From positions 1 through 25,957 of the forward strand of contig DAOVER010000041.1 of NCBI GenBank assembly GCA_030668875.1: 25,957 bases of DNA. The letters are read 5' to 3'. Below, piece after piece: positions 2,776 to 8,483 of the stretch. A model generated the notes under the pieces. The model saw nothing but the letters and a program-made list of their open reading frames with translations. It did no database searches and was not told the origin of the DNA. Each line of letters opens with the position of its first letter. The stretch's first letter is position 1. Source of the stretch: Candidatus Heimdallarchaeota archaeon (GTDB lineage Archaea > Asgardarchaeota > Heimdallarchaeia > Heimdallarchaeales > Heimdallarchaeaceae). Position numbers and translations under genes: made by a program.

Positions 2776-3930
2776 GTGGCTTCGTCTACATCCACAAAAA
2801 ATTCAATAATAAACAAAACTGATCAGACAGATTTCTTGATGGAATGTGTCGATATTGCAATAGGGGAAGAAACAGGTTCTCCCTACATGATTAAGTTAGC
2901 AAAGGAAAGGGGAATAAAGAAAGGAGACGTCAACAATTGGTTTGACTTAGCTGAACACTTTGGTTCCACTGACCCGAACATTTTCCGAGAACACTCGGTA
3001 AACTATACTACCACCAAATGGGCTCATCAATGGTATGCTCGTACACCCGGTGCAGAACTGCAAGTAGCGGAAACCGGAGGCACAACTGGAGCGCCGAAAA
3101 AAAATATTTTGGCGGCTAATACCACTAGAATAGATTTTGACGCTATGGATTATTTTGACTTAGAAACGGATACTTTTAATATTCTTACTAAGCTCGCTAT
3201 GACCCAATTCGAAGATTTTGGTATACCTCTACATCTTAACTATCTCGCAACTGTTCCTACAGGACCTCATACCATAGGTAAATGGACTATCAAATCGTTC
3301 GAACGTGATATAGCAAAATCCATCTTCATGATCGACATGGATCCTCGTTTCGTTAAGAAAGCAGCAATGATTGATCCCAAAATTATGGGTATGTATTTGC
3401 AACACATGCAAGACCAGACTCAAGCACTTGTTAAGCAAGAATTCCCATTCATACAGGGCCTCTTTACTACCGGTGTCTTGATTGAGAAATCCTTCCCAAT
3501 GATTCAAGCTTTGAAAGAAAAAGGTAATCTTCAAGCAATTGTTCATGGTGGAACTCCTTTATCAAATGAGACGCTTAAGATTCTCACTGAAGATATGGGC
3601 TTACCAGTAATTGGTTTCTACGGACAAAGCTTGTTCGGTACTGCTTTCCAGAGTCCTGATTTTGATGGTCATCACATAGATTATTACAGTCATCCTAGAA
3701 TGAACATGTTTCTAGTCTCCGATGAAAGTGACATTAAGAGTAGAATCAATTATGGTGAGATGGGTACCGTTGTTTCCCAACGTATCAGCCCTGAAACTGT
3801 TATTCCTGCCTTAGTTCAAAATGGTGACTTAGCTACTTTAATCAAACCTAAAGGTAAGTTCGACTACGCTGATGGTGCTCGTGATCCTCACAGAGATCTT
3901 TCTCAGGGCCAACAGATGGGAGTCTACTAA
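2776..3930 (+). CDS. ANL-superfamily adenylate-forming enzyme, EhpF/PaaK-like
   Basis: P-loop ETGGTTGAPK (variant of TSGTTGxPK); GFYGQSLFG resembles the YGxxE-type motif; short (384 aa); SD-like GGAGTTGA before the GTG. Confidence 0.7.
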   Translation: MASSTSTKNSIINKTDQTDFLMECVDIAIGEETGSPYMIKLAKERGIKKGDVNNWFDLAEHFGSTDPNIFREHSVNYTTTKWAHQWYARTPGAELQVAETGGTTGAPKKNILAANTTRIDFDAMDYFDLETDTFNILTKLAMTQFEDFGIPLHLNYLATVPTGPHTIGKWTIKSFERDIAKSIFMIDMDPRFVKKAAMIDPKIMGMYLQHMQDQTQALVKQEFPFIQGLFTTGVLIEKSFPMIQALKEKGNLQAIVHGGTPLSNETLKILTEDMGLPVIGFYGQSLFGTAFQSPDFDGHHIDYYSHPRMNMFLVSDESDIKSRINYGEMGTVVSQRISPETVIPALVQNGDLATLIKPKGKFDYADGARDPHRDLSQGQQMGVY

Positions 3931-3942
3931 ATTATACATTTT

Positions 3943-3971
3943 TTTCAACCATGGGAGGTTGATTTTTCTTT
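3943..3971 (+). repeat. Hairpin repeat copy 1 (native, 14 nt after the ANL stop): TCAACC-ATGGGA-GGTTGA flanked by T tracts; possible terminator
   Basis: Stem arms at 3945-3950 and 3957-3962; the 29-mer differs by 1 nt from 8455-8483. Confidence 0.9.
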
Positions 3972-4046
3972 TCCTACATTTCTTCTTTGATATCGATTAA
4001 TAATCTTTAATATGATTAAGACCTACACTTAATTAGTGAGATTGTC

Positions 4047-4235
4047 ATGACATCTTCATTAGAACAAGAAATTCAAAAAATAAAAGACAGATTAGAAGAG
4101 CTTTTTACTATCTCAAATACTATTCTTCATTTGCTTATCTCTGAAGAGGAAGCTTTTTCTGATGAAATATCAGCAATTAGAAACAAAGAAGACGCTGTTA
4201 ACGAGGAAATCTTATTTAAGGAGCTAACAAGTTGA
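4047..4235 (+). CDS. Archaeal RelB-like antitoxin
   Basis: 62 aa, acidic, N-terminal coiled-coil pattern; its TGA overlaps the TTG start of a RelE-like frame (4-nt overlap). Confidence 0.65.
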   Translation: MTSSLEQEIQKIKDRLEELFTISNTILHLLISEEEAFSDEISAIRNKEDAVNEEILFKELTS

Positions 4236-4498
4236 CTTTTGAAATTTCAATAAAAAAGTCTGCTTTAAAATTCATTTAAGGTTTAGATAAATCTCAGAAA
4301 GCATTAATCCACGATTTTATTCTAGTCATCAAGGAACATGCCGTTCCAAGCAAGAAATATGACATCGTTAAACTTAAATCCTTCACAAATACTTTTCGGG
4401 TTCATTTTGAAAATATCAGAGTTGTTTATACCGTTTCATGGAACAACAGTAAGATTCTTATTCAGTTCATTGGATGGAGGAAAGACGCTTACAAATAA
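4232..4498 (+). pseudogene. relE: RelE/ParE-family toxin interrupted by an in-frame TAA at 4277-4279
   Basis: Manual translation MTFEISIKKSALKFI*GLDKSQKALIHDFILVIKEHAVPSKKYDIVKLKSFTNTFRVHFENIRVVYTVSWNNSKILIQFIGWRKDAYK* follows the Pyrococcus-type RelE pattern (VP..K.D..KL, R.....R..Y.V.W, R..AYK). Confidence 0.82.
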
Positions 4499-4527
4499 CC
4501 ATGATCTTGATTGTCTATCATTTATAA

Positions 4528-4944
4528 TCATTCAATGAAGGTTAATTCTATTTTTTTATCTTTTCCTTTAAGTAACACATCAAATGATTCCAGAAACTTC
4601 CTTCCAATTAGAGTTTCAGTTAAAGATCGATGAGTATCAATTGTTGTCACGATTGAAACATCTATACCCTTTACAGTTACAGAACCACTTGCTGTTCTTA
4701 AAACAAATTTCTCTCCTGTAATTGTTTCAGCTTTAGCAAATAGATTTTCACTATATTCAAAAGCGGATAAATTTAGGTCATCATATAGCTTTACTGGAAC
4801 AACAATTTCCCCATCATATCCAGTATCTATCATTGCACTACATTCTATTGACTTTGAACCAAGAGGATCGCTTATTAATAAATCAACATATGGAGCTAGT
4901 TCACTTGAACTTGATGACGGTTTGTAATCAAAGATATTCTTCAA
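4528..4944 (-). CDS. Clan AA (retropepsin-like) aspartic protease, AF_0612-like
   Basis: Catalytic AMIDTGYDG motif and C-terminal LIGRKFL motif; single lobe, 138 aa. Confidence 0.85.
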   Translation of the reverse strand: MKNIFDYKPSSSSSELAPYVDLLISDPLGSKSIECSAMIDTGYDGEIVVPVKLYDDLNLSAFEYSENLFAKAETITGEKFVLRTASGSVTVKGIDVSIVTTIDTHRSLTETLIGRKFLESFDVLLKGKDKKIELTFIE

Positions 4945-5324
4945 GATTCTTTCCTCCTGAAACCAAATTCTGTTCTTCGACCTTCTTTAAGAATTGGTGA
5001 TACTATATTATACTTATTTTCAAGCTTGTTGAGTTTAACAGCTTTTATCGCTTCGTCTCGGTTTTCAAAAATTCCAATTATTAAACCTTCAGAAATAACT
5101 ATCCATTTGTTTTCATATTCTTTAATTAAATTTGGTAGCGTTCGTCTATACGTTGCATTATTCTGTTGTCTCATCAAATCCTTCTCACCTTTCTCTTGCT
5201 CTTCAGCTAACCATTTAATCATTGCTTCAGCAAAAGCTTCATTTATGCGCAAACCCTTTAGAGCTGCTTTTGACTTGAATTTTGCATAAAGCTCTTTGTC
5301 AACTCCTTTTATGAGTACAGACAT
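4941..5324 (-). CDS. RHH-like N-terminus fused to a DUF5678-like domain; antitoxin-like partner of the protease
   Basis: N-terminal VLIKGVDKELYAKFKSKA (RHH-like); C-terminal YENKWIVISEGLIIGIFENRDEAIKA; 4-nt overlap with the protease gene. Confidence 0.6.
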   Translation of the reverse strand: MSVLIKGVDKELYAKFKSKAALKGLRINEAFAEAMIKWLAEEQEKGEKDLMRQQNNATYRRTLPNLIKEYENKWIVISEGLIIGIFENRDEAIKAVKLNKLENKYNIVSPILKEGRRTEFGFRRKES

Positions 5325-5335
5325 ATTTTTTCACT

Positions 5336-7313: not shown

Positions 7314-7359
7314 TTCCTTTTCTTTGTGAAATCTTCAAAACATCAATCACCAGTAGAAA

Positions 7360-7385
7360 CTATAACATACTATAATGCTCTATAA
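7360..7385 (+). promoter_or_regulatory. Three CTATAA direct repeats at exact 10-bp spacing
   Basis: CTATAA at 7360, 7370 and 7380, ending 6 nt before ATG 7392. Confidence 0.5.
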
Positions 7386-7391
7386 TTTATT

Positions 7392-7610
7392 ATGAGTAAA
7401 ACTACTATCCAAATCGACAGCGAGCTTAAAGGTTTATTAGAGAGCCTTAAAATTCATCCGAGGGAACCTTATTCTGATGTCATAGCTCGTTTGATTTCTC
7501 TTAAATCCGAATCTGCCGAAGAATTTCTCAAAACTATAGATAAGGTTCAAAGGGAAAAAATGAGAGAACTTTGGGACAATGAAGACGATGAGGTTTGGAA
7601 CAATGTATGA
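7392..7610 (+). CDS. Antitoxin, archaeal TTIQI..ELK..L..LK..PRE.Y..VI type, with acidic WDN.DDE.W tail
   Basis: 72 aa; pattern common in small archaeal antitoxins; overlaps the MazF-like start. Confidence 0.75.
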   Translation: MSKTTIQIDSELKGLLESLKIHPREPYSDVIARLISLKSESAEEFLKTIDKVQREKMRELWDNEDDEVWNNV

Positions 7611-7926
7611 ATTTGGGGATGTTGTTCTAACAAAGATTACCTTTACTGATCAAAGTATCGTTAGAAAACGACCTGCTCCTGTTCTTTTTGAAGAGCATGA
7701 CAATATCATAGTTGCAGGGATTACAAGTAATCTGAAAATGCAAGGTATTAGTTTATCTGTTGATGAAGGAGCTGTAAAAGAGAGTATAATTAAAACAAAC
7801 TATTTATTCACAGTTGGTAAAAGTATTATTGCTCGCAAATTATTCAAGTTAAAGATGGAAAAGAAGAAAACAGTCTGTGAGGAAATCAAGGACAAAATCT
7901 GTGGGAGTTTCTCATTATTTTCTTAG
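7603..7926 (+). CDS. mazF: PemK/MazF-family toxin
   Basis: GDVVL...FTD....RKRPA.VL and VAGITS motifs; start moved to ATG 7603. Confidence 0.8.
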   Translation: MYEFGDVVLTKITFTDQSIVRKRPAPVLFEEHDNIIVAGITSNLKMQGISLSVDEGAVKESIIKTNYLFTVGKSIIARKLFKLKMEKKKTVCEEIKDKICGSFSLFS

Positions 7927-7987
7927 AAATCTTTTTAGGTCATAAGATTTGATGTAACTTTGCATAGATTCTTGTTTGGGTTTTGAT

Positions 7988-8398
7988 ATGACAAGCACTA
8001 CTAAAGTCCGTATTCTCTATAAAAAAGACATTAGAAATGGGTTCATATTCCTTGGAGTAATTCTAGCCATTCCATTTGTATTTCCTTTATTTCTGTCTGG
8101 AAGTTTAAGATATCAAGAATACTTTGCTTTTTTATTTGTCTTTAATCCGCCATTCTTTATTTTCACGGTGTTTTTCATAATAATTCTTGCTATAACTGCT
8201 TATGGAATATATATGCCAATTAAAGATTTTAGGAAATTTAATTTTGATTTGGATCGGGAGATAAGTAGAGAAGAAGTTACATTGAAAGAGAAGAGGTCGA
8301 GATATAAAAACCATAGAATATTAGCTTTGATCTATATGACTTTAGTTTCGATTATTTCTATTGTCACTTTCATATTTGCTTCAGGTTTTGGATGGTAA
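7988..8398 (+). CDS. Hypothetical membrane protein (about 3 TM)
   Basis: Three hydrophobic segments; ATG 7988 preferred over the track's start at 7976. Confidence 0.65.
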   Translation: MTSTTKVRILYKKDIRNGFIFLGVILAIPFVFPLFLSGSLRYQEYFAFLFVFNPPFFIFTVFFIIILAITAYGIYMPIKDFRKFNFDLDREISREEVTLKEKRSRYKNHRILALIYMTLVSIISIVTFIFASGFGW

Positions 8399-8454
8399 CA
8401 GTAGAAACAAATTTCTGATACCTTATTGAATAAGGTTACTTCTTTAATTCGTTC

Positions 8455-8483
8455 TTTCAACCATTGGAGGTTGATTTTTCTTT
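8455..8483 (+). repeat. Hairpin repeat copy 5
   Basis: TTTCAACCATTGGAGGTTGATTTTTCTTT, 28/29 identical to 3943-3971. Confidence 0.92.

Follow-up and report, generated by a model that had tools for sequence, protein, structure and literature searches.

A repeat-bounded cassette array in a genus of Heimdallarchaeaceae, integron-like in behaviour yet without integron sites or a neighbouring integrase

Integrons are the textbook route for stockpiling and shuffling small gene cassettes, and they rely on one family of integrases and one kind of site. Integrative elements such as e14 and phage 21 in icd, or ICESt1 and ICESt3 with their cis-mobilisable elements at fda, target the 3' ends of protein-coding genes; the minimal mobile elements of Neisseria swap cassettes between conserved genes purely by homologous recombination in the flanks; the tycheposon satellites of Prochlorococcus islands carry cargo only and depend on tyrosine recombinases and tRNA ends; and the pdif modules of Acinetobacter plasmids depend on XerC/D and on 28-bp Xer sites in alternating orientation. 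Here we analyse a stretch of 25,957 nt from Candidatus Heimdallarchaeota archaeon (Heimdallarchaeaceae; assembly GCA_030668875.1, the forward strand of contig DAOVER010000041.1 from position 1 to 25,957; the whole stretch is hereafter the window), in which a gene for an ANL-type adenylating enzyme, F1, is followed by four cassettes of mostly toxin-antitoxin (TA) genes set between five copies of a short hairpin repeat. The array is a single-locus cassette stack common to the genus, placed between F1 and the amidohydrolase gene F6, and is integron-like in behaviour, yet it has no integron sites and no integrase lies beside any of the arrays. The reading that we favour, and hold with about as much confidence as doubt, is that the array was built and is reshuffled by the host's own homologous recombination between the repeats, with TA addiction retaining the cassettes.

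Insertion with long target duplication has been described for restriction-modification complexes (Furuta, Abe & Kobayashi 2010, NAR 38:2428, PMC2853133; Nobusato et al. 2000, cited therein). The screen reported in that paper (PMC2853133) sought an addiction module of <20 kb between direct repeats of >30 bp, with no mobility gene and with a repeat that aligns to a single-copy target in an insert-free relative; the repeats often overlapped the 3' end of a gene, a life cycle of amplification and release via the repeats was proposed, and no archaeal case survived. The present locus is alike in holding small addiction modules between direct repeats without a transposase or integrase: its repeat units measure 32–130 nt, its cassettes 0.7–1.5 kb, and mobility genes are absent. 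It differs in its archaeal host, in its cargo, which is mostly TA, and in the serial insertions at one locus, where 2–7 units sharing a palindromic core are kept across the genus. Integrons of the attC type, including attC clusters without integrase, are enriched in Asgard archaea (Ghaly et al. 2022, PMC9668308) and are a different thing from the array. With sedentary integrons and clusters of attC sites lacking integron-integrases (CALINs), such as the Vibrio superintegron with its Vibrio cholerae repeats (VCRs), the array shares the single chromosomal location per genome, the variable cassettes and the frequent TA modules; unlike them, it has no IntI, no attC architecture and no common promoter, its genes lie on both strands, some with promoter-like stretches, and the coding end of a host gene is embedded in many of its repeats. 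To these described systems the array adds a genus-wide comparison, a palindromic core located past the stop codon, a measure of the exchange between species and a background without detected tyrosine recombinases.

The host genome (3.23 Mb in 99 contigs, 34% GC, 92% complete, from marine sediment) was compared with 23 other genomes of the same genus (24 including the host; labelled G001, G002 and so on). The wider search for the repeat core took in 58 further genomes of the class, including G041 of a neighbouring genus, and the population data are the assembled Logan contigs of four metagenome sequencing runs. A preliminary description of this DNA, made from the window alone, had placed repeats at 3945, 5422, 6530, 7293 and 8457, and a repeat search of the window confirmed all five as family D3, at 3940–3971, 5416–5447, 6526–6557, 7289–7320 and 8452–8483, spaced by 1476, 1110, 763 and 1163 bp. 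Each copy, all on the same strand, consists of a T-run, TCAACC, a loop of 5–7 nt, GGTTGA and the T-tract TTTTTCTTT; the commonest loop makes the repeat a 19-bp near-palindrome, TCAACCT-TAGGG-AGGTTGA, with a dyad of 7-5-7 bp and a predicted stem of 6–8 bp at −3 to −6 kcal/mol. The chance expectation for TCAACC-N6-GGTTGATTT with up to two mismatches is 0.09 per window, and a search for further copies in the host genome, as had been proposed (blastn-short, regular expression and nhmmer), found none outside the locus. Within the palindrome the right half is well kept and the left half variable, and all 59 copies lie on one strand. At F1-proximal sites the core is 76% conserved over 26 nt, which is only modestly higher than the 73% for the last 20 codons of F1, and core conservation alone was not counted as an argument. 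Independent Logan contigs from the four runs bridge every one of the five copies, so that the array is not an artefact of assembly, a possibility that the preliminary description had raised.

The five sites of the host differ chiefly in what precedes the palindrome. Site 0 (3938–3975, plus strand, as are all the others), directly behind F1, has a T-run, TCAACC (3945–3950), ATGGGA, GGTTGA (3957–3962) and the T-tract TTTTTCTTTTCC. Site 1 (5415–5447; stem 5422–5427/5433–5438) has the palindrome TCAACT/GGTTGA and zero gene tail. Site 2 (6436–6565) comprises an orphan copy of the last 27 codons of F1 with the F1 3' untranslated region (UTR), the palindrome at 6530–6548 (stem 6530–6535/6543–6548) and a T-tract; site 3 (7240–7331) has an orphan copy of the last 13 codons, of the type of the live gene of G002, a weakened palindrome at 7293–7311 (stem 7293–7298/7305–7311) and a T-tract. 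These two gene-tail copies form repeat families D1 and D2, 6436–6557 being 80% (80–83%) identical to 3850–3971, and 7240–7323 being 73% identical to 3892–3975. Site 4 (8446–8493), the last in the host genome, keeps a remnant of 2–3 tail codons, a UTR of the G001 type, the palindrome at 8457–8474 (stem 8457–8462/8469–8474) and a T-tract. That each cassette is closed by the end of the gene, as first proposed, is therefore true of the copies at 6436 and 7240, and not of those at 5422, with no tail, and 8457, with ~2–3 codons. The accompanying statement that no repeat cuts into a gene was confirmed.

The anatomy of the cassettes was derived by aligning the same cassette from different contexts. 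Every cassette starts at (T)TAGGGAGGTTGATTTTTCTTTYCTT, that is, with the loop, the right arm and a T-tract, so that its start includes the right half of the palindrome plus the T-tract TTAGGGAGGTTGATTTTTCTTTTCTT; sequence unique to the cassette sets in ~30–100 nt past this point, with an upstream region of its own and between one and three genes, which may lie on either strand. The closing part of many cassettes combines 0–27 codons of the F1 tail with the 3' UTR of F1 and the left arm TTTTTTCAACC; others close with the left arm alone or with a degenerate T-rich stretch. Two unrelated cassettes (7364–7388 and ~5470–5490 of the window) have in common a stretch, TAGAAACTATnAT or CTATAAT-like, ~35 nt ahead of the start codon, and stretches of this type are probably promoters of the B recognition element (BRE)/TATA type carried by each cassette. 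A similar stretch is seen behind site 4 (8492–8516).

The invariant part of the site (palindrome centre, right arm and T-tract) lies wholly 3' of the F1 stop codon, and many junctions hold this part alone, with zero tail. In G013 and on contig C106 of G007, arrays begin directly behind other genes (a TPR gene; an open reading frame (ORF) of 161 aa), and in G041 a site separates a protease-pair cassette from an MNT-HEPN cassette, beside a DJ-1 gene, with no F1 in the stretches of that genome that were examined. On these alignments the F1 tail often rides along to the left of the site without being the site itself. The preliminary description had proposed that a gene tail takes the place of attC in this array and that the gene is restored at every insertion; with a constant core after the stop codon, tails of variable length, many tail-less junctions, and relatives in which the site stands behind other genes or without F1, neither idea is supported. 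Elements of the e14/icd and ICESt1/cis-mobilisable type resemble the array in their direct repeats with the end of a protein gene, their tandem accretion and the lack of an integrase in some units. The array differs from them in that no integrase-bearing member was found and in its small units (0.7–1.5 kb), and, since the constant core follows the stop codon, no gene repair is needed.

The 20-nt core AGGGAGGTTGATTTTTCTTT, with up to two mismatches, is found in 18 of the 23 same-genus genomes, on the strand of F1 and almost always in one array; the 24 genomes of the genus give 44 matches against 3 for a reversed control, and among the 58 other genomes of the class more than a lone two-mismatch match occurs only in G041. 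Nearly every F1-bearing genome has the repeat 2–7 times downstream of F1, at differing spacing. Across ~20 genomes of the genus the cassettes differ in number and order with the repeat and strand constant, the very pattern that the preliminary description had offered as a check of a cassette system. Clustering of ORFs places the VapBC cassette third here and first in G001 and G023. The MNT-HEPN cassette takes second place in the window, fourth place in G009 and approximately fourth place in G002; the antitoxin/MazF cassette takes fourth place in the window, first place in G002, and third place in both G023 and G007. A PIN cassette on the minus strand has different neighbours in five genomes. 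Distally, the variable region is bounded by the conserved amidohydrolase gene F6.

Shared cassette genes are 80–90% identical at the nucleotide level between species whose F1 and F6 anchors are 68–72% identical, and in close pairs (anchors 86–89%) the cassette genes are no more alike than the anchors. Cassette divergence is thus approximately independent of species divergence, which indicates that cassettes are exchanged between species, as would be expected for a cassette pool that circulates within the genus. In the metagenomes, low-depth contigs of co-occurring relatives track the window through the repeat and diverge from it at 3969 and at 8501 (~18 nt past the last repeat), so these relatives carry other cassettes behind the same site. 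A scan of metagenome contigs for the core recovered three further F1 loci of the genus, a short low-GC contig with a full site (L057) and probable chance matches; viral contigs gave no core match. The minimal mobile elements and tycheposons are similar hot spots between conserved genes, in which whole-gene cassettes are swapped between strains, and the former lack the internal repeats that the array has.

Within a single genome the repeats are uniform: G004 has a private left arm, AATCAAC, at all three of its sites, and G001 and G011 have a private right arm, GGTTGG, at all sites. The joint between VapC and the gene tail is identical in the host, G001 and G023, and behind it the tail and UTR are of the local F1 type in G001, as is at least the UTR in G023. 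Private arms and local-type tails behind one and the same joint indicate homology-dependent exchange on the repeats, and the tail types of the VapBC cassette point to crossover or conversion inside the repeat. In the mechanism that we favour, presumably one of RadA-type recombination, circular DNA with one copy of the repeat would insert by a single crossover of the Campbell type, duplicating the repeat, and a crossover between flanking repeats would loop the cassette out; the same repeats would serve for recombination with DNA imported from congeneric species, gene conversion would make the repeats within a genome uniform, and TA addiction would select against cassette loss. The variation of tail length between 0 and 27 codons would be expected if each cassette kept whatever homology it had formed with. 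The fit of the locus to insertion with long target duplication likewise favours homologous recombination.

Orphan gene tails are not confined to the array. At ~seven further loci of the host genome an orphan tail lies 0.7–7 kb downstream of the intact gene, with extra genes in between and without the palindrome, and tail duplication on insertion is therefore not peculiar to the array locus. One of these loci is in the window (10266–11131, minus strand), where the last codons of an ABC-transporter gene (11051–12880) occur as a live tail at 11047–11131 and as an orphan of ~28 codons at 10266–10349, the two being 82% identical over 85 nt, with a 189-aa gene of no known family (10400–10969) between them. 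The homology stops exactly at the stop codon, no palindrome is present, and an empty site exists in G016 and G002, where the transporter stop abuts the DJ-1 gene. Other such loci lie on contigs C10 (12089–15905), C15 (12265–13119), C47 (12208–19635), C57 (5350–6390) and C95 (82715–85014), with tails of 70–175 nt that are 83–97% identical; C47 contains the orphan twice. Two convergent genes on C10 have orphan tails that adjoin each other in exchanged order, exactly as predicted for a circularised allelic segment that would have integrated by one homologous crossover. Two further candidates were rejected, the apparent orphan tail on C3 being an internally deleted paralogue and the match on C9 the shared acidic tail of ribosomal stalk proteins.

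Several observations sit poorly with homologous recombination as the builder of the array. In at least 12 types of junction the similarity to the consensus sets in no further than ~2 nt from the palindrome centre, with the left arm at most degenerate; a breakpoint fixed in this way is easier to square with site-specific cleavage than with homologous exchange. The right half offers ~26 nt of homology, which is short for homologous recombination. G004 keeps its hairpin potential by way of a shifted left arm and most stem changes elsewhere keep wobble pairs, which suggests selection on the structure itself. A rare right-arm variant, GGTTGAC, precedes the PIN cassette in both G007 and G017 behind different upstream elements, and right-arm variants that travel with the downstream cassette are to be expected from crossover at the centre. 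No circular form and no clean case of a circle joint was seen in the Logan contigs, which are uninformative either way on circles, and no cassette showed an excess of depth. Among the joints examined, one that appeared to skip from 3973 to 5460 belongs to a low-depth relative, and another, apparently going back from 6512 to 3939 as in a circle, contains 9 additional letters and is explained by a variant end of the gene (TAT TGA). A bare F1 site followed by the distal flank, which would correspond to the empty site of the transporter tail, was found in no genome.

A possible though less likely explanation is that a site-specific recombinase acting in trans cuts and rejoins at the palindrome centre, so that cassettes would be excised as circles and reinserted and homologous recombination would only blur the repeats later. 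The clustered breakpoints, the arm variants that move with the downstream cassette and the hairpin retained through a register shift in G004 all agree with it, as do the dyad symmetry of the core, the common strand of all 59 copies and a PIN cassette of G041 that stands with a full site on another contig, among genes unlike the array neighbours. A little less likely again, in our estimate, is the stronger form of this idea, in which the genus would have a dedicated cassette-capture system whose trans-acting enzyme recognises the 19-bp palindrome and T-tract and exchanges strands at the centre, a system that would have evolved independently of IntI and attC. What weighs against such an enzyme is first the inventory of recombinases. 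The preliminary description had noted none in the array, and a scan of 30 array ORFs agrees, with neither a recombinase nor a transposase among them; the genome-wide search for tyrosine recombinases that it had called for gave no match to PF00589 in the 92%-complete host, and there was likewise none to XerA (NF040815) or to Y1 HUH transposases. The only recombinases detected in the host are of the serine type, namely two IS607-like copies and two small resolvase-type genes of ~250 aa with an N-terminal catalytic domain (C29 ~40648–41394, L051:2149–2898; C18 ~25774–26460, L050:1489–2205). The latter two, kept at 73–80% amino acid identity in 27 of 29 genomes within the family and without a match in the remaining families of the class, are, besides an unrecognised enzyme, the candidates; their distribution goes well beyond that of the arrays, to which they are not linked, and no array-like site lies up- or downstream of them. 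Moreover, crossovers inside the tail and UTR and the genome-wide uniformity of the arms require homologous exchange in any case, the tail duplications elsewhere in the host lack the site, and the contigs of the four metagenome runs hold no circle joint. The pdif modules offer a parallel, being small, often TA-bearing, bounded by short recombination sites and devoid of a recombinase of their own; the sites of the array differ in being all direct repeats, and in lying in a host without a XerA or PF00589 match. The two small serine recombinases might fill a housekeeping role, for instance in the resolution of chromosome dimers, in a genome without XerA.

We regard it as improbable that the array is a fossil, accreted in tandem by a tyrosine integrase that targeted the 3' end of F1 and whose integrase-bearing member has since been lost. 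Direct repeats containing a gene 3' end are the classic footprint of such elements, and tyrosine recombinases (PF00589) are patchily present in 12 of the 24 genomes of the genus. However, none of these matches is on an array contig, no integrase is found in ~20 arrays, and eight array-bearing genomes (the host and seven others, 88–92% complete) lack any PF00589 match; cassettes are still passing between species, and a constant core after the stop codon with tails of 0–27 codons at some junctions is unlike the fixed identity block by which such an element rebuilds its gene.

Marginally less probable still is the view that the repeat is a mere terminator or 3'-end hairpin of F1 and the cassette operons, and that the differences among genomes reflect vertical descent with differential loss. 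The T-run, the weak hairpin and the second T-tract would suit termination on the plus strand, and the mostly wobble-compatible stem changes are those of an RNA structure, but the repeat also bounds minus-strand cassettes, where termination is impossible, carries coding pieces of F1, and occurs at no other gene ends in the host genome; furthermore, cassette order is permuted, not merely thinned, and cassette identity tops anchor identity by 12–18 points. To a classical CALIN we give next to no credence: the TA-rich cassettes, the integrase-less attC clusters reported from Asgard genomes (Ghaly et al. 2022, PMC9668308) and the AAC...GTT in the arms, as in R''/R' boxes, are outweighed by a symmetric part of 19 bp with a stem of 6–8 bp and neither L boxes nor extrahelical bases, against 57–141 bp for attC (the repeat is far too short for an attC site, which the preliminary description had not taken it to be either), by genes on both strands and a TATA-like, putatively promoter-bearing stretch ~35 nt before the start codon in two cassettes, by the lack of IntI or any other PF00589 protein, and by an Rfam scan of 3700–8800 without a match at E up to 1, in a database that may hold no attC model. 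The absence of PF00589 and XerA matches in the host, the lack of attC architecture and the genes on both strands, all of which concern features that define an integron, exclude a classical one.

Asgard archaea, among prokaryotes the closest relatives of eukaryotes, thus reach an integron-like outcome, a single TA-rich row of cassettes that changes fast and is fed by horizontal transfer, without an integron integrase or attC. If homologous recombination on portable repeats suffices for this, the true number of cassette arrays may far exceed what integron finders report, and addiction modules would have a simple route for colonising gene ends; if a dedicated enzyme is responsible, it would represent a new recombination system in Asgard archaea and an archaeal functional analogue of the integron. 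Either way, the locus is a defined place in which to measure gene flow between Heimdall species.

The anchor gene F1 (2776–3930, plus strand) encodes a protein of 384 aa that has no Pfam or NCBIfam match; it matches EhpF (PDB 3l2k/3hgu, E 1.7e-14), an ANL-type adenylating enzyme without the C-terminal domain, and the earlier label of an ANL gene was in this sense roughly right. F1 was found in 16 of the 23 same-genus genomes, and a search of 16 genomes belonging to three other families did not find it; it is confined to the genus among the genomes searched, stands always at the edge of the variable region, and bears an internal stop in G019 and G014. F1 may itself be accessory cargo. Hints that it might be a cassette come from G007, in which arrays precede the place of an absent F1, and from the genes of cassette type ahead of F1 in the window, where no core site was found directly upstream of the gene.

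Cassette A (3976–5414) is composite. It holds an intact RelB-like gene of 62 aa (4047–4235, plus strand), a RelE/ParE-like pseudogene (4232–4498, plus strand; match below the Pfam cut-off) with an in-frame TAA at codon 16 (4277–4279), and, on the minus strand, a clan AA aspartic protease (4528–4944) with a partner gene (4941–5324). The RelBE part appears as a decaying TA module whose right-hand repeat is missing, so that it is fused with the protease-pair cassette; the pair (F41/F42) stands as a cassette of its own in G007 (L032) and G041, and an intact RelBE-type cassette (F52/F53) is present in G016 and G002. Cassette B (5448–6435, plus strand) consists of an MNT nucleotidyltransferase of the Polbeta type (5513–5953; PF18765, 3e-12) and a HepT/HEPN RNase (5954–6382; PF01934, 3e-24), followed by ~50 nt of unique spacer, and recurs at other array positions in G009, G002 and G041. 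Cassette C (6566–7239, plus strand) encodes VapB (6615–6827; PF02697, 5.5e-13) and the PIN protein VapC (6824–7231; PF01850, 4e-10). Cassette D (7332–8445, plus strand) encodes a DUF7557/VapB-like antitoxin (7392–7610), a weakly matching PemK/MazF-like protein (7579–7926; E 2e-4, below the Pfam cut-off) and a membrane ORF (7976–8398); in G002, G023 and G007 the antitoxin and MazF genes, without the membrane gene, make up a cassette of 0.7 kb that closes with a tail of 13 codons. The contents first listed for the cassettes stand for MNT-HEPN, VapBC, the antitoxin with its MazF-like partner, the membrane ORF and the aspartic protease, with RelE reduced to a pseudogene and the DUF5678 assignment of 4941–5324 not recovered. 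The TA families above Pfam cut-offs are MNT/HepT, VapB/PIN (twice more in the window) and, in a relative, ParE, and to speak of toxin-antitoxin cassettes is right for most of the cargo; the relatives also carry TPR, zinc-ribbon, CAAX-protease, MFS, NosD/beta-helix, kinase and LLM-oxidoreductase genes.

Beyond the last repeat, the distal flank (8576–9542, plus strand) encodes a small membrane protein (8576–8824) and a DJ-1/PfpI family protein (8922–9542) and is common to G016, G002 and G041. On contig C169 of G041 (L063, ~6400–6590), directly behind the MNT-HEPN cassette, stand the final ~15 codons of the small membrane gene located ahead of DJ-1 in the window, a further orphan gene end next to a cassette. 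A minus-strand VapC (PIN) gene (9568–9966) with its antitoxin (9953–10183) comes next; it lies outside the repeats here and is a repeat-bounded cassette in G023 and G009. By synteny, F6 (15319–16635, minus strand; PF01979, 5e-45) anchors the variable region at its distal end and is conserved in this position in most genomes of the genus. Upstream of F1, without a repeat, a PIN toxin (1147–1560) and its antitoxin (1541–1786) lie on the minus strand; this pair is 73–81% identical in nucleotide sequence to a repeat-bounded cassette of G009, G012, G007, G017 and G014, and its flanks here are unrelated. The sequence to the right of the PIN module proper, which runs from the toxin stop to ...ACATATATYTTTCT, takes at least four different forms across the genomes, and this indicates that the module also moves independently of the repeat.

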